Positions 14,590 through 61,625 of a stretch of DNA of 64,000 nt are shown piece by piece. The number at the start of each line of letters is the position of its first letter. The stretch's first letter is position 1. The position numbers and the translations under genes were made by a program. The stretch spans positions 15,944 through 79,943 of the forward strand of contig JAPLXP010000014.1 in the NCBI GenBank assembly GCA_026396015.1, given 5' to 3'. The stretch comes from Candidatus Nomurabacteria bacterium (GTDB lineage: Bacteria; Patescibacteriota; Minisyncoccia; Phycocordibacterales; UBA9973). Below the pieces are notes generated by a model that saw only the letters and a program-made list of their open reading frames with translations, was not told the DNA's origin and did no database searches.

Positions 14590-14626
14590 AAAATACCTCA
14601 CAATATTTGTGAGGTATTTTATTTAT
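14590..14626. terminator. bidirectional intrinsic terminator hairpin
   Basis: aaaatacctcacaatatttgtgaggtatttt with flanking A/T runs, between the convergent deacetylase and smc genes. Confidence 0.7.
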
Positions 14627-16887
14627 TTTGCGTAAACTTCTGCGTCGTCGAGTTTGATAGAAAGGAGTTTGGAGGCACCAAGAGCGTCCATAGTCACACC
14701 GTAGAGGACCTGTGCTCGAGACATAGTCTCGCGATTGTGAGTCACCACGATCAGCTGTGAACACTTGGATAAATTCTCAATCATGTTTCCATACTTGCGA
14801 GAGTTTGCTTCGTCCAATGCTGCATCAGTCTCGTCGAGGACTAGGAATGGCGGAGGATTGACCTGTGATATAGCAAATAGCAATGCGATAGATGTCAGTG
14901 ATCTTTCTCCACCCGAGAGCATATGTAGGTCTTTGACTTTCTTTTGAGGTAGAGTCACATTGATCTCTATCCCCCTTTCAAATCCAAGCTCTGTATCCTC
15001 TTCGGCTTCAGGATCTACTTCTTCTAGTTCATCTTTCTTGCGACTCTTCTTGTGCTCCATAGTCACAGATAGGAATGCAGATCCACCACCGAACATTAGA
15101 GAAAAGAATTCTTGGAATTGCTTATTAATCTTCTCTACCCCACGTTTAAATTCAGTATCTAGAGTATCCTTGAGATCTACTATCAAAGTACGGAGTGATT
15201 CAATGCTCTTTTGCAGATCAACCAATTCTTTTTCTAGGAACTGATCTCGTTCACGAGTATCTTCATATTCTTTTATAAGATCTCCACCACCAAGAGCCCC
15301 AGAGTCTTCTAATTTGATTTTAATACGCTCTATCTTGCGGCGAGCTTCGTCCTGAGAGCTGCGAGATACACTTGCACCATCTACATCCATTCGTACGTAT
15401 TCTAGGACCTCACGGCCGATAATAACAGATGCCTCGGATACTTCTGATTCAAATGCATTCTTGATATTTGTGAGTTTTTCTTCTTCGAATACTAGGCCAT
15501 GCATATTTGATACGAGTGTATTCTTTTCAGCTAGGAGTTCATACAGCACTCTCTCACTATCACGATTTGCATTTTGGCTTTGCTTTTCTGCATCACGAAT
15601 AGAATTTATAGCTGCAATTATCTCACCCTCTTCCTTGCTCATATTTTCTATATCTAGGTTGATACTCTCGCGTACTGATTCGAGTTCAATATATTCGCGC
15701 TTTAATTCTTCTTTGACTGAATTTGCTTCTTCTTTGTTTGAAGTCACACGAACAGAAGCCAACCGATTGCGAATACGAGCAAAGATATCCTTTAGCACAC
15801 CGAGATCTTCTGTATTGTCAGATTCAGAAAGGAATGATTCTAAATCATTTGCAAATCCTTGCCATGCTTCTTTTGAGATAATATCAACGCGCACTTCTGG
15901 AACTTTATTGATAGATCGCATGATACTATCGATGGACCCTTCGATGCGTCCGAGCTTGCGAGATAATTCGTCCTTCTTGCGACGTAGTTCCACAAGGAAA
16001 GATTCCCGGTCTCTGAGATCTTCTTTATAACTCTCATCATTTTGAATTTGATTCTTATTACTTTCCACAGCTGAAATACGGCCCTCGATATTCACAATAG
16101 CTTCATCCAGTGTTCGTCTCTTGTGTATTAGCCTATGAGATTCTGCTTTTGTATATGCGGATTCTCGAGATAAATAATCTCGATAGAGTACCCCCAATTC
16201 TTCTCGCATCTCACGAGCTTTTTCTAGCTTTTCAACTTGCTTCTTCAAAAAAGTAAGATGAGGAATGACTTCACGTCTCTGAGCTTGAACCTCTTTCATA
16301 TTCAAAACTGTCTTTTCTAGTTTGCGATCTGTCTCCTTGATTCTGAATTGATACACCTTCAGTCCGAGGGCATCCTCGATCATTCCACGTCGATCTTTAC
16401 TACTCGCATTGAGCACTCGATCTGCCTCACCTTGGGATATGATATGGTGACCTGAGCTACCGATATTCACAGATGCAAGTAAATCATTCACATCCTTTAG
16501 GCGTACTTCTGTACCATTGATACTGTACTTATTGGCACCATCTGCAAAGACTTCACGGGATACTGTAATCTCGTCGTAGTCTAGAGATACTCCGAGCCCA
16601 GAATTTGTAAAAGAAAATATTTTATTTTTATTATCAAAAGTAATAGATACAGATGCACGATTCGCAGCTGATAGAGATTTTGATCCCTTGTATATCAAAT
16701 CCACTCCACCTTTCCCGCGGAGAGATTTCATAGACTGCTCGCCGAGAACGAAACGAATTGCTTCGACGATATTTGATTTTCCAGATCCATTTGGACCTAC
16801 GATAGCAGTAACAGGCGTCGTATAATGTACAACGCTCTTTTTACCAAATGATTTAAAAGACGAAAGCTCTAGAGCTTTTAATGTCAT
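14623..16887 (-). CDS. smc: SMC-family chromosome segregation ATPase, short (754 aa) with no recognisable hinge
   Basis: N-terminal Walker A head FKSFGKK...AIVGPNGSGKSNIVEAIRFVLGE and C-terminal signature LSGGERSLTSIALLFAI...LVLDETDAALD. The middle is charged coiled-coil only. Canonical position downstream of rnc. Confidence 0.85.
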   Translation of the reverse strand: MTLKALELSSFKSFGKKSVVHYTTPVTAIVGPNGSGKSNIVEAIRFVLGEQSMKSLRGKGGVDLIYKGSKSLSAANRASVSITFDNKNKIFSFTNSGLGVSLDYDEITVSREVFADGANKYSINGTEVRLKDVNDLLASVNIGSSGHHIISQGEADRVLNASSKDRRGMIEDALGLKVYQFRIKETDRKLEKTVLNMKEVQAQRREVIPHLTFLKKQVEKLEKAREMREELGVLYRDYLSRESAYTKAESHRLIHKRRTLDEAIVNIEGRISAVESNKNQIQNDESYKEDLRDRESFLVELRRKKDELSRKLGRIEGSIDSIMRSINKVPEVRVDIISKEAWQGFANDLESFLSESDNTEDLGVLKDIFARIRNRLASVRVTSNKEEANSVKEELKREYIELESVRESINLDIENMSKEEGEIIAAINSIRDAEKQSQNANRDSERVLYELLAEKNTLVSNMHGLVFEEEKLTNIKNAFESEVSEASVIIGREVLEYVRMDVDGASVSRSSQDEARRKIERIKIKLEDSGALGGGDLIKEYEDTRERDQFLEKELVDLQKSIESLRTLIVDLKDTLDTEFKRGVEKINKQFQEFFSLMFGGGSAFLSVTMEHKKSRKKDELEEVDPEAEEDTELGFERGIEINVTLPQKKVKDLHMLSGGERSLTSIALLFAISQVNPPPFLVLDETDAALDEANSRKYGNMIENLSKCSQLIVVTHNRETMSRAQVLYGVTMDALGASKLLSIKLDDAEVYAK

Positions 16888-16890
16888 AAA

Positions 16891-17586
16891 TTAATCCAAC
16901 CACTTCTTAGCTTCTAATGCATTGCGGGCTGCTGATTGTTCAGCTTCTTGTTTACTCTTACCTTTACCCAATGCAATGCGATCATCACCAAAGAAAATAG
17001 CGATAGTGAAATGTTTATCATGATCAGGACCAGACTCGCTGACTACCTTGTAAGACGGAGTCACACCTACGTGCTCTTGAGATTTTTCTTGAACTAGACT
17101 CTTTGCATCTCTCCACAACTTCTTGGCTACGATCTCATCTATTTTACCAAATAAAGTACGAGCAATAAAATCCTCGGCCACGTCATAACCACGATCAAGA
17201 TATACAGCACCTACGTATGCCTCGTATGTATTGGCTAGGATATAACTACGAGCTTTACCCATATCTTTTGATTCACCTTTTGAGAGGAGCAGGTAGTTGT
17301 TCATACCGAGCTCACCAGCCACCTCACCTATGATCACAGCATTCACTAATGCTGATCTATATGCCGTTAGCTCACCTTCGTCACATTTTGGATATTTACG
17401 ATAAAGATAATTTGTGACTGCGAGTTCAAGAACTGCATCACCCAAAAATTCTAGACGCTCATTGTGAGACAATCTAGATCCTGAGTTTTCATTTATATAG
17501 GATCGATGAATAAAAGCTTGTTCTAAAAGTTTTTTATCATCAAAGATAATTCCTATATCTTTTTCAAATTTTGTAAAATCAATCAT
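16891..17586 (-). CDS. rnc: ribonuclease III
   Basis: ERLEFLGDAVLELAV RNase III signature plus C-terminal dsRBD. Confidence 0.92.
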   Translation of the reverse strand: MIDFTKFEKDIGIIFDDKKLLEQAFIHRSYINENSGSRLSHNERLEFLGDAVLELAVTNYLYRKYPKCDEGELTAYRSALVNAVIIGEVAGELGMNNYLLLSKGESKDMGKARSYILANTYEAYVGAVYLDRGYDVAEDFIARTLFGKIDEIVAKKLWRDAKSLVQEKSQEHVGVTPSYKVVSESGPDHDKHFTIAIFFGDDRIALGKGKSKQEAEQSAARNALEAKKWLD

Positions 17587-17590
17587 TAGA

Positions 17591-17660
17591 TTAGTTTCTA
17601 GGTTCTAGTGACTAGGTACTAGTATATTTTCTTTACTAGAAGCTAGTCACTAGAACCTAA
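17591..17660. promoter_or_regulatory. CTAG-rich palindromic intergenic element (family C): aggttctagtgactag ... ctagtcactagaacct
   Basis: Perfect 16-bp inverted repeat around an AT-rich spacer. It lies between the NusB-Nudix stop and the rnc start. The same motif recurs at ~52058, ~61000, ~61590 and ~58430. Confidence 0.6.
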
Positions 17661-18562
17661 TTCTTTGTTAATATTTCAATAGCTTTTGTGAGAAGCGGAA
17701 TCATATTTTCATAAATACGTAGTCCTGCTATCTCCTCGATTGGGAACCATTGCGCCCCATCGAGACCTCCTGTACCCTTTTCAAGTGTGATTTCTGTATA
17801 TTCTGATTCACCGAGAAAGAATACAACTTGCTTACGAATCTTTCCTTTTTCTGGGTGATTTGCTATGTATTCGTTGCGTCCAAGGATTTCCTTAATTTTA
17901 ATATCAAGATCCATTTCTTCTTTTATCTCACGAATAGCACCTTGTTCTTCATTCTCTCCATCTTCAATACTACCCTTGGATAATGTCCAGTATCCAAACA
18001 CATCATGAACAAAAGCAAAATACAATTTGCCATCATGATTTGAATAAACTACAGCTCCAGCTTTCTTTTCAATTGGGAATTTTGCAGGGTCAGTCTCAGT
18101 GAATTTTGGATTCTTCTTTTTGCTGACATCATCTTTGCCTGGCTCACCGATCTCCTTGTACACACCACCGAGGACTCCGTTTATAAACTTACTTGAATTC
18201 TCTCCACCAAAACTTTTAGCAAGTTCGATAGACTCATTTATAGCTACCTTTGGAGGAACCTGTGTTCTATCACCAAAAAGAAGCTCGTAGAGCCCCATAC
18301 GTAGAATATTACGATCAACTATAGATATCTTTTCAATTGGCCAATCAGGAGCAGCTTTTTCAATAATCTCATCGATTATAGCCTTCTTTTTTACGACACC
18401 GTTAAAAATCTCTTCTATGAAAGAGTTATCATCGAGGCCTGGACCAAATTCCTCTATATTGCGATCAAGCATAACAGTAGGAGATTCATCCTTATTCACA
18501 CCGAAATCCCACTCAAAGAGTGTTTGTAGAACAATTGAACGTGAAAGGTGCCTGTTTGCCAT
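17657..18562 (-). CDS. nusB: NusB antitermination factor fused to a C-terminal Nudix hydrolase domain
   Basis: N-terminal 140 aa are NusB-like (HLSRSIVLQTLFEWDF...AINESIELAKSFGGENSSKFINGVLG). The C-terminal half carries a Nudix box GSIEDGENEEQGAIREIKEEMDL (G-x5-E-x7-REUxEExGU). Confidence 0.8.
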   Translation of the reverse strand: MANRHLSRSIVLQTLFEWDFGVNKDESPTVMLDRNIEEFGPGLDDNSFIEEIFNGVVKKKAIIDEIIEKAAPDWPIEKISIVDRNILRMGLYELLFGDRTQVPPKVAINESIELAKSFGGENSSKFINGVLGGVYKEIGEPGKDDVSKKKNPKFTETDPAKFPIEKKAGAVVYSNHDGKLYFAFVHDVFGYWTLSKGSIEDGENEEQGAIREIKEEMDLDIKIKEILGRNEYIANHPEKGKIRKQVVFFLGESEYTEITLEKGTGGLDGAQWFPIEEIAGLRIYENMIPLLTKAIEILTKN

Positions 18563-18643: not shown

Positions 18644-18856
18644 TTACTTTGACTTTGTTTTTGTTGCTTTTTTTGTAACTTTCTTCACCACATCGAGAAC
18701 TTTTCTACCACGATACATGCCGCAGTTCTTGCAAACTGAGTGAGTCTCTTTTGGAGCCTGACAATTTGAACAAGCACCAAAAACTGTGCCTTTCAAAGCA
18801 TGATGTGAGCGTCGATTCCCTGTATGAGAACGTGTATGTCGCATTCGTACTACCAT
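18644..18856 (-). CDS. rpmF: 50S ribosomal protein L32 with K-rich C-terminal tail
   Basis: MVVRMRHTRSHTGNRRSHHAL...C-x2-C...C-x2-C matches the L32 zinc ribbon. The track ORF begins upstream at 18907, but the internal Met fits L32. Confidence 0.85.
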   Translation of the reverse strand: MVVRMRHTRSHTGNRRSHHALKGTVFGACSNCQAPKETHSVCKNCGMYRGRKVLDVVKKVTKKATKTKSK

Positions 18857-18896
18857 AAATACAAGTATACTGATTTTTACATAAAATGCAAATAAA

Positions 18897-18928
18897 AAGC
18901 CACTCATTCAGAATGAGTGGCTTTTTTG
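18897..18928 (-). terminator. intrinsic terminator
   Basis: aaaagccactcattcagaatgagtggcttttttg hairpin plus U-run downstream of the 18942..19709 gene. Confidence 0.7.
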
Positions 18929-18941
18929 TTTTTGCGACAAA

Positions 18942-19709
18942 TCAACGGCTTGCCTTGATATTTTTTTTCAAAAAATTAAATTTTTTGGGGTTTGATTCAA
19001 TAACAAACCTCAGTCCTTTTTCAAAATTATTTGAATGACCGTTATATAGTGATGCTCCGGTGCATTCACTAATTTCTTCAGAATAAGACCTGATAATTTT
19101 AGGATCAGGAGACCCAATAAAAGAACTAGGTGCATCTATGTCCATAGAAACAAAGTTCAATTTAAAATGACATGCAACTTCTGAGACTGACAATAAAGAT
19201 ACTATTCCGACCCTTGTTGCATCAATTTCCTCTTTTAATTCCCTTTTAACTGAATTAATCTGAGTTTCTTCGATTAAACGCAAAAAAAGATCCTCACTTT
19301 TATTTTTAAAAGTATCTTGGACTTTTTTGAATAAATTAGCAGTAAACTCATTAAAAATAGGATTTGCTGTTGCAAAATCTGTGATGCCATTAGAGTCCGA
19401 TACATACTGACGATTAAGTACATCAATCTCCATGTAGAGATATTCCAAAGAATGATCTCTATGGCCTGAAGATGTAAAACATTGTACCATATTGTCTATG
19501 GCTTTAAGCAAATCCTCACCAATAAATTTACCTCCAGGAATTCTTTTTTGAATTTCAAATTTGGAAAATTTATAATCTACTAACCAAACTCTTGGCGTCT
19601 CTCTTAGATCAAAAGACACGCAATTTACTGCGTAATTAAAAGTGTTAGGATTCTGAAAAACAGAATTCAAACCAGAGCCCGAGCGGGTCCCAATATCATT
19701 TTTTTTCAT
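18942..19709 (-). CDS. hypothetical protein
   Basis: 255-aa ORF with coding-like composition. No motif I can assign. Confidence 0.4.
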   Translation of the reverse strand: MKKNDIGTRSGSGLNSVFQNPNTFNYAVNCVSFDLRETPRVWLVDYKFSKFEIQKRIPGGKFIGEDLLKAIDNMVQCFTSSGHRDHSLEYLYMEIDVLNRQYVSDSNGITDFATANPIFNEFTANLFKKVQDTFKNKSEDLFLRLIEETQINSVKRELKEEIDATRVGIVSLLSVSEVACHFKLNFVSMDIDAPSSFIGSPDPKIIRSYSEEISECTGASLYNGHSNNFEKGLRFVIESNPKKFNFLKKNIKASR

Positions 19710-32227: not shown

Positions 32228-32392
32228 TACTAGTGGCTTCGGCCTCCGAGAAAGCTCCCGCAAGGGAGCTTTCGATTTTATACTTGCAGTCTATATAACA
32301 GTATGGTATTATAAAAATATTGAGAGGTTGCCTCTCTTGCTCGCAAGAGCCGATAGCCCCGCAAGGGGCTATTATAATTTATAAAGCTTACT
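32228..32392 (+). ncRNA. candidate structured small RNA: cluster of tetraloop-capped hairpins (1 UUCG, 3 GCAA, 1 UUGC)
   Basis: Hairpins ggcTTCGgcc (32235-44), gagaaagctcccGCAAgggagctttc (32248-74), gagaggTTGCcctctc (32322-36), gctcGCAAgagc (32339-50) and atagccccGCAAggggctat (32353-72). Possible promoter ttgcag-17-tacagt at ~32195-32223. GNRA loops appear only in + orientation. No overlapping protein gene except a spurious 62-aa track ORF. Confidence 0.35.
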
Positions 32393-32764
32393 AAAGTATT
32401 CTTGTATTTTAGAATATTCTTCGTCTGAAAGAATATATTTCCTCTCTGTAAGTCTCCTCTTGTCAAAACTACGTATCTGATACACTAGTGCTGTATGCAA
32501 AATACCGTCATCTGTTTTTATAATACAAGAATATTTTCTATTTTTAACTTTTGAGGTAAGTGGTATACCAATAAAACTTTCACTACCTTCGGCATTTATC
32601 ACAAGAACTGGTCTTGTATAATCATCCCCTTTACCATACACCTCACTACCCACATTCATCCCAATACTACACCACCAAATTTCTTTTTCTTGTGGATGAT
32701 TAAATGTTTCATTTTGATCAATCTTTATTTTCTTTTTATTCCACTTATCAAAATCTTTATCCAT
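32372..32764 (-). CDS. MazF/PemK/EndoA-family endoribonuclease toxin, no adjacent antitoxin gene
   Basis: VGSEVYGKGDDYTRPVLVINAEG...IGIPLTSK and ALVYQIRSFDKRRLTERKYILSDEEY align with B. subtilis EndoA (VGSEQGGVRPVLVIQND...; LLEQIRTIDKQRLTDK...). It has a ~35-aa N-terminal extension. Confidence 0.75.
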   Translation of the reverse strand: MDKDFDKWNKKKIKIDQNETFNHPQEKEIWWCSIGMNVGSEVYGKGDDYTRPVLVINAEGSESFIGIPLTSKVKNRKYSCIIKTDDGILHTALVYQIRSFDKRRLTERKYILSDEEYSKIQEYFSKLYKL

Positions 32765-44369: not shown

Positions 44370-45257
44370 CTACATTTCTCTCAAAATCTTGATTCTGTCT
44401 TCTAGTGGTGGATGAGTAGAAAATAGATTTCCTATCTTCTTTGCTTTGTCGCCAGCACCAAATGGATTGGAAATATATAGATGTGCAATGGCTGTAGACT
44501 GATGATTCATGGGAGCACTATATTTCTCCAACTTTTCTAAAGCAGAGGCTAGACCTTCTGGATAGCGAGTCAGTAATGCACCAGATGCATCGGCTAGATA
44601 CTCACGCTTACGAGAGATTGCGAGCTGTATGAGTGTAGCCATAATAGGAGCTAGAATTGCTAGTACTACGCCGAGGATCATGAATAGCATATTACCCTCT
44701 CTATCATCGCGCCTATTACCAAATAGGGTCATACGTATAATCATGTCTGAAATAATAGATATAAATCCTACTAGAACCACAGCCACAGTCGATACGAGCA
44801 TATCCCTATTTCCAATGTGGCTCATCTCGTGAGCCATCACCCCTTCGAGCTCTTGCTTGTTCATGATTGCGAGGAGTCCAGTCGTCGCAGCGACTACTGA
44901 ATGATCCTTGTCGCGGCCAGTAGCGAATGCATTTGGCGCCGAATCCTCTATCACATAAATTTTTGGTATTGGTAATCCTGCAGTGATAGATAGATTCTCC
45001 ACAGTCGTATACAAATCAAAATATTGCTCACGTGTAGCAGGATGTGCACCTGCGATAGCGAGTGCAATCTTGTCTGAATACCAATAGCCGATAATATTCA
45101 TCACGATACTAAATACAACAAAAATATAAAGAATATTTGGATTGCCATATAGCTGGGAAATAAAAAATCCGAGTCCTATGACAATGATCAAAAAACCACT
45201 CATGAGCAGCCATGTCTTTTCTACGTTCTTTGTTTGTTGAGTATATAGTGTTGCCAT
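44370..45257 (-). CDS. htpX: protease HtpX (M48 zinc metalloprotease)
   Basis: HEMSHIGNRD HExxH motif with four TM segments. Confidence 0.88.
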   Translation of the reverse strand: MATLYTQQTKNVEKTWLLMSGFLIIVIGLGFFISQLYGNPNILYIFVVFSIVMNIIGYWYSDKIALAIAGAHPATREQYFDLYTTVENLSITAGLPIPKIYVIEDSAPNAFATGRDKDHSVVAATTGLLAIMNKQELEGVMAHEMSHIGNRDMLVSTVAVVLVGFISIISDMIIRMTLFGNRRDDREGNMLFMILGVVLAILAPIMATLIQLAISRKREYLADASGALLTRYPEGLASALEKLEKYSAPMNHQSTAIAHLYISNPFGAGDKAKKIGNLFSTHPPLEDRIKILREM

Positions 45258-45264
45258 TTTTTAC

Positions 45265-46017
45265 TTAGATAACATTATCCCCTTTTATCATCTTCATTGC
45301 CTCTTGAACTGTAGTCATAAATTGCGCAGGAAAAATAATTGTAGAATTCTTTTCTACACTAATCTCTGCCATAGTCTGCAATGTGCGGAGTTGTAGTGCT
45401 ACAGGATGTGCAGTCATGATATCTGCTGCTTCTCCAAGCTTTTGTGCAGCTTGCATTTCACCTTCTGCTGCTACGATCTTTGCACGGCGTTCACGCTCTG
45501 CCTCGGCCTCCTTTGCCATAGCACGCTGCATGTTCTCTGGTAGCGAGATATCTTTGATCTCAACTGCAGAGACCTCTACTCCCCATGGCTCTGTATGTGC
45601 ATCGATCACATTCTTGATCTGATTGTTTATCTCACCTGTCTGAGAAAGTAGCTGGTCTAGCTGGAATTGCCCTACTACATTACGCACTGTAGTCTGACTG
45701 ATTTGATTTACTGCTTTGTATACATCCTCGATACTTACCACTGCCTTCATCGGATCTACTACATGATAATAGGCTACAGCTGCGATATCTATAGATACAT
45801 TATCTTTTGTAATAATTTTTTGTGATGGAATCTCCATAGTCACCGTGCGGAGCTGCACTCTAGTCATCTGTTCAAAAACTGGGATGACTAGTATCAATCC
45901 TGGACCACGAATACCTGCAGATTTACCGAGAAACAATATGACTCCTCTCTCATACTCCTTTACCACCCGGATAGAAGCGATGAGTAATAAAACAATAACA
46001 GCGATAATTATGTACAT
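45265..46017 (-). CDS. SPFH/band-7 (stomatin/prohibitin-like) membrane protein
   Basis: N-terminal TM, band-7 core and C-terminal coiled coil EAEAERERRAKIVAAEGE. Confidence 0.85.
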   Translation of the reverse strand: MYIIIAVIVLLLIASIRVVKEYERGVILFLGKSAGIRGPGLILVIPVFEQMTRVQLRTVTMEIPSQKIITKDNVSIDIAAVAYYHVVDPMKAVVSIEDVYKAVNQISQTTVRNVVGQFQLDQLLSQTGEINNQIKNVIDAHTEPWGVEVSAVEIKDISLPENMQRAMAKEAEAERERRAKIVAAEGEMQAAQKLGEAADIMTAHPVALQLRTLQTMAEISVEKNSTIIFPAQFMTTVQEAMKMIKGDNVI

Positions 46018-46035
46018 ATATAATATATTAATTTA

Positions 46036-46344
46036 TTAATTCTTATTTGGAGTGTAGTAATCTGAGATATCATCTACCGATACAGTGACACCATATTCAA
46101 AACTAGGATTCTCTTCATTTTTAGACGAAATATTCAGAGTTAAGGCATCAGAATTTTTTTCTGATACAGAATAAATCTCTCCTTTATACATAGCTGTGTC
46201 ACCGATCTTTATATCGTCAAATTTAACTTTTCGTGCTTTTTCTATGTCAGATTGTTTTTTATTATTCTCTTCTAAAACTTTTTTATCCCAAGCTTCATTA
46301 TCTTTCTTTGCATTATCTCCTGATGAAAATTTAAAGGACTCCAT
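46036..46344 (-). CDS. hypothetical acidic protein
   Basis: 102-aa ORF. No assignable domain. Confidence 0.35.
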   Translation of the reverse strand: MESFKFSSGDNAKKDNEAWDKKVLEENNKKQSDIEKARKVKFDDIKIGDTAMYKGEIYSVSEKNSDALTLNISSKNEENPSFEYGVTVSVDDISDYYTPNKN

Positions 46345-46349
46345 AAGAT

Positions 46350-46904
46350 TTAGAATTTAACTTCTACTGGATTCTTTTCTACACTATCAGCCTCGAGCTG
46401 AAAGAAGTCCATCTTTGTAAATGAGAACATTGATGCGATCACATTGCCTGGGAACATTTGTATTCCAGTGTTGAAATCACGAACATTGCCATTGTAAAAA
46501 CGACGAGCTGCTTGTATTTTGTTTTCTGTATCTGAAAGTTCTTTTTGGAGTTCGATAAAGTTTGTATTTGCTTTGAGCTCTGGATAAGCTTCAGATATTG
46601 CGATGATAGATTTTAGAGTTCCTGATAGCATATTCTCTGCTGCACCCTTTTCCTCAGCTTTCGCACCCATAGCAGCTGAACGAGCCTCTGTCACCTTTTC
46701 AAATACTGCAGATTCATGAGTAGCATAACCTTTTACTGTATTCACAATATTTGGTATCAAATCATAGCGACGCTTTAGCTGTACATCGATATCTGCCCAT
46801 GCCTCGGTAGCACGATTTTTCAACGTGACAAAACCATTGTATTTAATAATAAAAAACAAAACGACTAGACCCAAAACCACTAAAATAATTAAAGTTGTAC
46901 TCAT
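46350..46904 (-). CDS. lemA: LemA family protein
   Basis: N-terminal TM, then ...NGFVTLKNRATEAWADIDVQLKRRYDLIPN LemA signature. Confidence 0.85.
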   Translation of the reverse strand: MSTTLIILVVLGLVVLFFIIKYNGFVTLKNRATEAWADIDVQLKRRYDLIPNIVNTVKGYATHESAVFEKVTEARSAAMGAKAEEKGAAENMLSGTLKSIIAISEAYPELKANTNFIELQKELSDTENKIQAARRFYNGNVRDFNTGIQMFPGNVIASMFSFTKMDFFQLEADSVEKNPVEVKF

Positions 46905-52057: not shown

Positions 52058-52135
52058 TTAGTTTCTAGGTTCTAGTGACTAGGTTCTAGGATTTTTAACT
52101 AATCACTAAAAACTAAATACTAGAACCTAATTTAA
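52058..52135. promoter_or_regulatory. CTAG-rich palindromic intergenic element (family C copy)
   Basis: aggttctagtgactaggttctagg ... tactagaacctaa between the ftsW stop and folD start. Core is identical to the 17600..17615 copy. Confidence 0.6.
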
Positions 52136-54795: not shown

Positions 54796-54905
54796 TTCTG
54801 GCGACAACCTACTTTTCCCACGAATGAGTATCATCGGCGCAGATGGGCTTAACTTCCGAGTTCGGAATGTTATCGGGTGTGACTCCATTGCCAAATCACC
54901 AGAAC
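54796..54905 (-). rRNA. rrf: 5S ribosomal RNA
   Basis: Reverse complement GTTCTGGTGATTTGGCAATGGAGTCACACCCGATAACATTCCGAACTCGGAAGTTAAGCCCATCTGCGCCGATGATACTCATTCGTGGGAAAAGTAGGTTGTCGCCAGAAC. It contains the CCGAAC..GAAGTTAAGC and GCGCCGATG 5S hallmarks, and the terminal helix I pairs. Confidence 0.88.
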
Positions 54906-55039
54906 AAAATTTTCAACTAACGTATTGTATCAACAAATTTTGTCGAAAACAATAAACGATGTGTCATGATATGTGAAAACTGAATGCTATTTGATAGAGT
55001 GTCTCCCCGTAGGGAGATATACAAGATTGTTTGTGATTT

Positions 55040-58005
<2,966 letters not shown>

Positions 58006-58305
58006 GGAAATTTAAAAACCACATTTTCTTCCCTCTCTCGATAAGAGGAAAGCGATACACAATTTTGCTTTGTTGACGGGAACCGCTTCCCAGCAAAAGG
58101 TGTATCCTTTTATTTCTATCTTGCACTCTATTTCCATCCCGTATAAAAGACCCTAAAAAATTTTAGGATAACAGTGGGATGGAATAGCATTCAGTTTTCA
58201 AATATCATGATGTTTTTAAACAAAAAAAATAGCCTTTCGGCGGTACAAGCGAAACCATAAGAGGTTTAACTTCTCCGCAGATTTTGATTACTTTTCTTTA
58301 ATAAC

Positions 58306-58345
58306 ATCGTAGGAGCATTCTATACTAACGGAAAAAGAAAGTCAA
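58306..58345 (-). promoter_or_regulatory. candidate rRNA operon promoter (TTGACT-17-TAGAAT) ~300 nt upstream of the mature 23S 5' end
   Basis: Minus strand gcTTGACTttctttttccgttagtaTAGAATgctcc. The leader contains a 12-bp hairpin at 58126-58190. Confidence 0.45.
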
Positions 58346-58398: not shown

Positions 58399-58426
58399 AA
58401 AAGAGCCTGAAAGGCTCTTTTTCTTT
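58399..58426 (-). terminator. intrinsic terminator downstream of the 58486..59172 gene
   Basis: aaaaagagcctgaaaggctctttttc. Confidence 0.75.
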
Positions 58427-58485
58427 ACTAGAAACTAATTATTAAAAACTAGTCACTAATCATATGACGAAGCTTTATTCTGTGC

Positions 58486-61000: not shown

Positions 61001-61097
61001 TTAGGTTCTAGTAGCTAGGTTATAGCTTCTAGAACAATTAATTAATTGAATAAACTTTTTTGTATTTTACTAGCAACTAGAAACTAGTCACTAGAAA
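61001..61097. promoter_or_regulatory. CTAG-rich palindromic intergenic element (family C copy) between rplJ and rplL
   Basis: ttaggttctagtagctagg ... actagaaactagtcactagaaact. The 3' arm overlaps the rplJ stop codon. Confidence 0.55.
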
Positions 61098-61585: not shown

Positions 61586-61625
61586 TGTTAGGTTCTAGGA
61601 GCTAGGTTCTAGTGACTAGTAAATA
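61586..61625. promoter_or_regulatory. CTAG-rich palindromic element (family C copy) immediately upstream of the rplJ start
   Basis: ttaggttctaggagctaggttctagtgactag. Confidence 0.55.

Follow-up and report, generated by a model that had tools for sequence, protein, structure and literature searches.

A two-domain NusB of Patescibacteria carrying an Ap(n)A-hydrolase-type Nudix domain at its C-terminus

The window analysed here is a stretch of 64,000 nucleotides from a Candidatus Nomurabacteria bacterium (contig JAPLXP010000014.1, positions 15,944 to 79,943), and all positions below are counted from its first nucleotide. On its minus strand, at 17657..18562, lies a complete open reading frame (ORF) encoding a NusB domain fused to a Nudix domain. 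This gene, referred to below as nusB-nudix, starts with ATG, contains no internal stop codon and specifies 301 amino acids followed by a stop codon. NusB is a core factor in the synthesis of bacterial rRNA and is otherwise invariably a protein of one domain. The fusion is real, ancient and lineage-wide, and it represents the two-domain NusB of Patescibacteria. A first-pass annotation, made from the nucleotide sequence alone, had proposed that NusB is fused at this locus to a Nudix domain whose box is canonical; the Pfam and TIGR01951 scores and the complete Nudix box bear this out, and the strand is added here.

Reality and domain composition of the fusion

Both halves of the protein were recognized by hidden Markov model (HMM) searches with scores well above the gathering cutoffs. 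The Pfam family NusB (PF01029) covers residues 7-136 (E 3.4e-34, 118.5 bits for a cutoff of 23.1) and the Pfam family NUDIX (PF00293) covers residues 189-281 (E 2.3e-13, 50.7 bits for a cutoff of 21.1), so that the C-terminal half does score as a Nudix domain, a point which the first-pass annotation had regarded as decisive. The NCBIfam equivalog of nusB (TIGR01951) is reached with 123.4 bits for a cutoff of 88.35. A protein 100% identical to the translated ORF is on record from three contigs under the name [quoted passage not shown]. The best 120 clusters at 90% identity (79-100% identity), which originate from NCBI, JGI, ENA and Logan assemblies, contain proteins of about 300 amino acids, each with both Pfam domains. 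Genomes were scanned by a combination of pattern search and tblastn with one genome per GTDB species, and the best 80 loci were inspected. All 80 are fusions encoded by a single ORF. One high-scoring segment pair (HSP) spans the NusB and Nudix halves in 79 of them, the last one ending at a contig end. No frameshift or stop codon splitting the ORF, the danger named in the first-pass annotation, was seen. An assembly or sequencing artefact, by a frameshift or a chimeric contig joining two genes, is ruled out by the three contigs with the identical protein, by thousands of independent full-length homologues from the four data sources and by the single HSP in 79 of 80 loci, and it is also countered by a linker conserved in the clade; we give this explanation practically no weight.

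The NusB domain corresponds to residues 1-138 (18149..18562, minus strand) and is above the cutoffs of both Pfam and TIGR01951. It aligns with the NusB proteins of Thermotoga, E. coli and Aquifex with E values from 1e-19 to 1e-15. An AlphaFold2 model of the whole protein was built with an alignment of 61 sequences and displays two confident domains, with a mean predicted local distance difference test (pLDDT) of 82. In this model seven helices are found over residues 2-138 (pLDDT about 75-92). Foldseek superposes the NusB half on the Aquifex NusB 3R2D_B, taken from a NusB-NusE complex, with a template modelling (TM) score of 0.89 and a root-mean-square deviation (rmsd) of 1.9 A.

In the structure of the NusB-NusE-BoxA complex, F122 stacks on the boxA nucleotide U8 and is needed in vivo, E81 reads the same U8 and residue 118 touches a phosphate (PMC3177189). 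F122 is represented here by F126, which is invariant in the alignment of the fusion family, and E81 by D83, which is conserved in 95% of the family. At position 118 the protein carries N122, the same residue as in the E. coli gain-of-function variant D118N. E93 and G129 are also invariant in the fusion family, and the N-terminus is basic, with R4 and R8 conserved in 89-93% of its members. Concerning the boxA- and NusB-binding residues, to which the first-pass annotation had drawn attention, F126, D83 and N122 are intact; the predicted boxA contacts are thus all present, and the function of NusB (partnership with S10 and binding of boxA RNA) is predicted to be retained. Judged from its sequence, the ORF is the organism's orthologous NusB, expected to work together with ribosomal protein S10 in the antitermination of rRNA transcription. 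S10 (NusE), which was searched in order to check its NusB-contact residues, is not encoded in the window.

The Nudix domain corresponds to residues 164-301 (17660..18073, minus strand) and is assigned to the type of the diadenosine polyphosphate (Ap(n)A, or ApnA) hydrolases by Pfam, profile comparison and Foldseek. The Nudix box, GSIEDGENEEQGAIREIKEEMDL, occupies residues 197-219 (17906..17974, minus strand) and fits the pattern GX5EX7REUXEEXGU: G197, E203, R211, E212, I213, E215, E216 and L219 are present, and the sole deviation is D218 in place of the penultimate glycine. In the six-frame translation of the window, residues 197-219 give the only match resembling a Nudix box. The model shows an alpha/beta/alpha Nudix fold with pLDDT values of about 85-95 over most of residues 164-300.

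A profile built from 27 diverse Nudix halves of the family matches the Aquifex diadenosine tetraphosphate (Ap4A) hydrolase 3I7U from end to end (E 2e-25). The next matches are Chlamydia CT771 (6e-16), the Thermus Ap6A hydrolase Ndx1 (3e-15), human NUDT2 (3e-14) and the C. elegans Ap4A hydrolase (Ap4AH; 4e-14), followed by the mycobacterial MutT1 and then by Dcp2 (E about 1e-11). With Foldseek, 3I7U is again the top match (TM 0.88, rmsd 2.1 A), ahead of the "diadenosine polyphosphatase" Rv2985, MutT1, the Nudix domain of NrtR, the C. elegans Ap4AH and Ndx1. The matches comprise hundreds of Nudix structures, among them BdRppH and NudC, and also NrtR and AraR, transcription regulators in which a Nudix domain serves as effector sensor. 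The P1 phosphate is held in Ap4A hydrolases by Lys42 and Tyr82, and the adenine lies sandwiched between Tyr82 and Phe128 (PMC4734340, PMC2425470). The residues aligned with Lys42, Tyr82 and Phe128 of the human Ap4AH are K196, Y232 and Y284, and this pocket is conserved in all the 80 species loci. In the protein of the window, the predicted catalytic core and the predicted phosphate and adenine pocket are both intact.

The two domains are joined by a disordered linker of about 25 residues, 139-163 (GEPGKDDVSKKKNPKFTETDPAKFP; 18074..18148, minus strand). Residues 140-155 have pLDDT values below 50 and the predicted TM score (pTM) of the model is 0.51; the Nudix domain therefore appears flexibly tethered, with no fixed orientation between the domains. 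In the model it hangs on the C-terminal helix of NusB, which bears F126, and is not packed on NusB. G139, E140 and P141 are invariant in the close clade. The beginning of the linker, GEPGK (residues 139-143; 18134-18148), is invariant or nearly so in 61 sequences at 60-89% identity, and could be a short linear motif rather than a mere spacer.

Distribution, gene order and erosion of the Nudix box

The survey suggested in the first-pass annotation finds a relative in at least 531 species-representative genomes. An exhaustive HMMER search of representatives at 50% identity gave 160 matches below 1e-30, of which about 55 are full-length fusions, with identities down to about 34%. Searching with a profile built on the fused members of greatest divergence yields thousands of additional relatives, labelled as Komeilibacteria, Parcubacteria, Microgenomates, Nomurabacteria or "Patescibacteria group". 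The fusion proteins are plainly named "NusB" throughout the databases, the C-terminal extension being ignored in the naming, and both domains are already precomputed in their public Pfam annotations. A full-text literature search for NusB with Nudix, Patescibacteria or Candidate Phyla Radiation (CPR) returned incidental co-occurrences only. As far as the literature was searched, the fusion is visible in databases but undescribed, and its function is unstudied. The first-pass annotation had not recognized it as a standard architecture; this judgement holds for the literature searched and fails for the genomes, where a very large clade of Patescibacteria, with thousands of entries, has the fusion as its standard NusB. 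The parts are well understood and the fusion itself is a simple domain addition. What gives it weight is that the whole Patescibacteria/CPR radiation, made up of ultra-small bacteria, has equipped NusB with a module predicted to bind and hydrolyse nucleotides, which annotation pipelines miss; the annotation should read bifunctional or two-domain NusB.

The gene lies in a conserved cluster on the minus strand. Upstream of it is rpmF (18644..18844; Pfam Ribosomal_L32p), which encodes ribosomal protein L32 and whose start is probably the internal Met22 of an 87-residue ORF, because the homologues have 62-66 residues and a terminator is located at 18894-18926. Directly downstream is rnc (16891..17586; Pfam Ribonuclease_3 and dsrm), which encodes RNase III, followed by smc (14623..16887; Pfam SMC_N), with which the conserved cluster ends. 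Among the 80 loci inspected, rpmF is upstream of the fusion in 78, rnc adjoins it in all 80 with a median spacer of 13 nt, and smc comes after rnc in 77. The complete order thrS (minus), rpmF, nusB-nudix, rnc and smc is kept in 60-75 of these 80 close loci, and the order rpmF, nusB-nudix, rnc was also found in one Komeilibacteria contig and in one contig labelled "Microgenomates". The product of smc has 754 amino acids here and 852 in one Komeilibacteria relative. Typical bacterial SMC proteins have about 1,150-1,200 residues, and a much shortened coiled coil is therefore implied.

In other lineages an unfused NusB of 152-157 residues occupies the same place between rpmF and rnc or HU. Because the unfused NusB holds the same genomic slot, the N-terminal domain can be regarded as the orthologous NusB and the Nudix domain as an appendage. 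No Nudix gene adjoins the unfused nusB in two such lineages, and an origin of the fusion by merging of adjacent nusB and nudix genes is unsupported in this small sample (n=2). The apparently stand-alone Nudix relatives either start exactly at the linker or carry frameshifted tails, and look like frameshifted or truncated fusions, not like stable separate genes.

The conservation of the Nudix box differs between members of the family. The R-E-x-x-E-E core is intact in 69 of the 80 species-representative loci, in 146 of 153 relatives at 75% identity or more, and in 31 of 45 at 60-75% identity. Among the 55 divergent full-length representatives, a biased sample of 50%-identity representatives ranked by similarity to the protein of the window, the core is intact in 9 and eroded in 46, and the first glutamate is kept in 13. 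Twenty-five of these can be called dead-box members, since at most one of the three catalytic glutamates is still acidic, and they nevertheless keep K196 (22/25), a tyrosine or phenylalanine at Y232 (24/25), Y284 (23/25), Y248 (22/25) and W272 (22/25). The core reads RIVKKE in one natural dead-box member (P0130) and SVVKRE in another (P0129). In a distant subgroup of the Komeilibacteria type, with about 31% identity in the Nudix half, the core is intact in 119 of 120 sequences, a set fetched with a box-intact profile. The proportions of box-intact and dead-box members are not unbiased frequencies, because of these two sampling biases. Whatever the level of divergence, the Nudix half changes more rapidly than the NusB half.

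Three proteins of the survey, P0233, P0265 and P0240, consist of NusB and a C-terminal region of 130-200 residues in which a low-complexity insert rich in K and E replaces the helix of the Nudix box. They keep the flanking elements of the Nudix fold (GL.IK, NYS, K.I.L.VV, W. and K.I.K.L) and are predicted to be an extreme degenerate form of the NusB-Nudix fusion.

From these alignments the predicted ligand pocket emerges as the family-wide constant, and the predicted hydrolysis as a property kept in some lineages and dispensable in others. Since the catalytic residues are lost in many relatives that keep the pocket, hydrolysis cannot be the sole reason for the conservation of the fusion. In large subgroups, the predicted catalysis is clearly under selection. 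The box-intact and dead-box lineages, with the same pocket, constitute a natural experiment separating binding from hydrolysis.

Possible functions of the tethered Nudix domain and other features of the window

The window contains a 23S-5S rRNA operon (54796-58345, minus strand) that has no 16S gene in its vicinity. The operon possesses a sigma70-type promoter of its own (TTGACT-17-TAGAAT, 58345-58317, minus strand) and a leader of about 300 nt. A stem of 28 bp, complementary at 27 of its 28 positions, brackets the 23S gene by pairing the leader (58210-58183) with the trailer (54991-54964), and is of the type that RNase III cleaves. In the leader, TGATATTTGAAAACTG (58207-58192, minus strand) resembles the Firmicute-type boxA. 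It was rejected as an independent boxA: it has a reverse-complement partner (15/16) in the 23S-5S spacer and lies inside the 28-bp stem.

We tentatively favour, as a quite possible reading short of a probable one, that the Nudix domain, tethered to the antitermination complex, reads or erases an adenine-5'-polyphosphate; of the possible ligands, the 5' end of the leader RNA that bears boxA is the most likely. NusB and S10 would bind the leader of the nascent pre-rRNA, and the tethered Nudix pocket would capture a nearby adenine-5'-polyphosphate, with the pppA- or Np4A-capped 5' end of this leader as the likeliest target. The captured end would provide a second anchor point on the leader RNA. 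In box-intact members, including the protein of the window, the bound end would be hydrolysed to a 5'-monophosphate or a shortened end. Once RNase III, encoded by the next gene, has cut the processing stem, such an end would allow the excised leader to be cleared and NusB and S10 to be recycled. Dead-box relatives would perform the binding (reader) step only.

The RNA 5' end is favoured as ligand for two reasons. Such ends are substrates of enzymes from the same Nudix neighbourhood: Np4A caps and 5'-PP(P) are taken off by RppH and non-canonical caps by NUDT2, and Dcp2 is an mRNA-decapping enzyme. A binding-only role, as a second anchor, would also still be sensible in the dead-box lineages. 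The functional theme fits this mechanism, by the tight coupling to rnc and by the RNase III-type stem around the 23S of the window. The first-pass annotation had suggested 5'-end processing or decapping, or nucleotide sanitation; the first part appears plausible, given the ApnA type of the domain and relatives that act on RNA ends, and nothing specific speaks for sanitation of the MutT kind. Should the target of the Nudix domain be the 5' end of the nascent leader, a bacterial antitermination complex would for the first time be seen to include, as a physical part, a decapping or 5'-end pyrophosphohydrolase activity.

Several observations weigh against an action on the RNA end. For all the named NCBIfam Nudix equivalogs, RppH included, the scores fall well short of the cutoffs; NF001936, the RppH model that scores best, reaches 24.6 bits for a cutoff of 118. 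Because no named equivalog cutoff is reached, the Nudix half is placed in the Ap(n)A-hydrolase neighbourhood but left unclassified there; these HMM scores are compatible with an RppH-type action, even if the protein is not filed as RppH. The closest solved relatives are hydrolases of free dinucleotides. The clamp of two aromatic residues is not universal, as the distant box-intact subgroup usually has V or I at the position of Y232, and the dead-box counts come from the biased sample described above. No independent boxA is found in the 23S leader, where the only boxA-like string is the 5' strand of the processing stem, and the window contains no 16S leader. Finally, AlphaFold2 predicts no contact between the domains, and the model gives no structural hint of allostery or of a composite site.

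The same pocket admits another ligand. ApnA are by-products of aminoacyl-tRNA synthetases and rise under stress. The Nudix domain might be an alarmone sensor or eraser that binds free Ap4A/ApnA or ATP, and hydrolyses it if the box is intact, its occupancy modulating the assembly or the activity of NusB in the antitermination complex. Translation stress would in this way be connected to the synthesis of rRNA. We consider this possible and on balance somewhat doubtful. The top sequence and fold matches are hydrolases of free Ap4A and Ap6A, and the pocket residues of these enzymes are kept even where catalysis is lost. The effector sensors NrtR and AraR are among the matches, and a precedent exists in CFIm25, a factor of RNA processing with a Nudix fold, which binds Ap4A with a Kd of about 2.4 uM but does not hydrolyse it (PMC2425470). 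However, the model offers no interface to transmit the binding of a ligand (low pTM, disordered linker), and alarmone sensing alone leaves unexplained why catalysis is so strongly retained in two large subgroups. If the Nudix domain senses Ap4A, rRNA transcription would be a direct target of this long-debated alarmone.

The favoured action on the 5' end of the leader can be extended further, and we rate this extension as doubtful. The Nudix domain would be a dedicated reader, and in box-intact members also an eraser, of the 5' ppp or Np4A of the nascent pre-rRNA, and NusB would be a two-point clamp, holding the 5' end and boxA, that couples antitermination and RNA chaperoning to a 5'-end-dependent clearance of the leader. 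If this is true, the clamp would be a bacterial module of transcription-coupled decapping or 5'-end surveillance with no described counterpart, and the dead-box lineages would be natural "binding-only" mutants.

The inositol monophosphatase SuhB, present in the rrn antitermination complex of E. coli, is a precedent for an enzyme fold in this complex. By analogy, the Nudix fold could mainly provide an additional protein-protein contact, independently of catalysis, its nucleotide chemistry being vestigial. The retention of the domain in the 46 divergent representatives with eroded glutamates is in agreement with such a scaffold, as is the persistence of the rest of the fold in P0233, P0265 and P0240, where the box helix has given way to the K/E-rich insert. 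The conserved residues are nonetheless those of an Ap4A-hydrolase ligand pocket and not a new surface patch, and the near-perfect core of the distant subgroup and of most close relatives would be unexpected if the chemistry were irrelevant; we therefore consider a pure scaffold unlikely.

It is very unlikely that the fusion is one of convenience, in which a housekeeping Ap4A/NpnN hydrolase was joined to NusB in a streamlined genome for co-expression only, with functionally uncoupled halves. In its favour, gene fusions are known from the small CPR genomes, the model shows two structurally independent domains and the Nudix half is the faster-evolving one. But dead-box domains should then be lost or decay, whereas their pocket and fold are kept. 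The fusion moreover persists in several candidate phyla and in no fewer than 531 species, where the Nudix domain is always at the C-terminus of NusB and the gene always in an rRNA-themed rpmF-nusB-rnc operon, and the apparently split versions look like derivatives of the fusion.

A universally conserved transcription factor, the coupling to RNase III and a catalytic loss with the pocket kept make this protein worth an experimental look.

Concerning the surroundings of the gene, a hairpin of about 23 bp (dG -35.6 kcal/mol, z -7.3) lies between nusB-nudix and rnc (17587-17656). It was rejected as an RNase III autoregulatory site, since it is not conserved and the spacer of the 80 relatives is short. 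About one third of these relatives carry variable, CTAG-rich palindromic inserts at this site, and the rest have spacers of 0-13 nt. The CTAG-rich palindromic repeat, with the core CTAGTCACTAGAAC, is found in the window at 17587-17656, 52069-52126, about 58400-58470, 61005-61097 and 61592-61622, with 14 matches for 5.2 expected. It looks like a dispersed intergenic element of the REP/MITE kind and not like a part of the nusB-nudix system.

An orphan ORF of 255 amino acids (18942-19709, minus strand) with no Pfam match is located between thrS and rpmF. It is preceded by a near-consensus promoter (TTGACT-17-TATAAT with TG, 19762-19734), and the terminator mentioned above, a bidirectional one of 15 bp, lies downstream of it and before rpmF. 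This ORF, which contains RELKEEIDA, was rejected as a second, degenerate Nudix protein: besides lacking a Pfam match, it gives an hhalign probability of 7.7% and is present in 3 of the 80 relatives. Elsewhere on the minus strand, the Pfam scan detected a gene for a MazF/PemK-type toxin (32372-32764) and a cluster encoding LemA, a SPFH/Band 7 protein and an M48 peptidase (44370-46904), which adjoins secD and secF.

Comparison with known systems

With the characterized NusB proteins of E. coli, Aquifex and Thermotoga (3R2C/3R2D, 1TZT, 3D3B), the N-terminal domain shares the fold, the boxA-U8 contacts, the equivalog score and, in sister lineages, the gene context. The protein differs from them by an extra C-terminal extension of 160 residues, made of the linker and the Nudix domain. 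This Nudix domain shares with the Ap4A/ApnA hydrolases (aq_158 3I7U, NUDT2, C. elegans Ap4AH, CT771, Ndx1 and the Mtb Rv2985/MutT1) the W-T-x-x-K-G motif, the Nudix box, the Lys/Tyr pair at the P1 phosphate and the pair of aromatic residues stacking on adenine. Contrary to these enzymes, it is tethered to an RNA-binding transcription factor, lacks the catalytic glutamates in many members and meets no named NCBIfam cutoff.

RppH, Dcp2 and NUDT2 belong by sequence and fold to the same Nudix neighbourhood. Dcp2 and RppH-DapF follow the same design logic, in which an RNA- or protein-binding module brings the Nudix domain to RNA 5' ends; the targeting module would here be NusB, which is unprecedented for those enzymes. 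The dead-box pattern of the family recalls CFIm25 (NUDT21), NrtR and AraR, which are non-catalytic Nudix readers after the loss of glutamates (CFIm25 for Ap4A, NrtR for ADP-ribose). The protein of the window, in contrast, keeps the full catalytic box, and both its partner (NusB) and its process (bacterial rRNA antitermination) are different.

The 16S rRNA m5C967 methyltransferase RsmB/Sun is to our knowledge the only well-known architecture associating the NusB fold with an enzyme. Identity with RsmB/Sun is ruled out, since the RsmB models score 30-63 bits for cutoffs of 269-540, match the N-terminal domain only, and the protein has no methyltransferase domain. In both proteins a NusB-like N-terminal domain is fused to an enzyme, which in RsmB acts on rRNA; this enzyme is a methyltransferase in RsmB and a Nudix domain here, where the N-terminal domain is a true NusB orthologue and not an RsmB paralogue.

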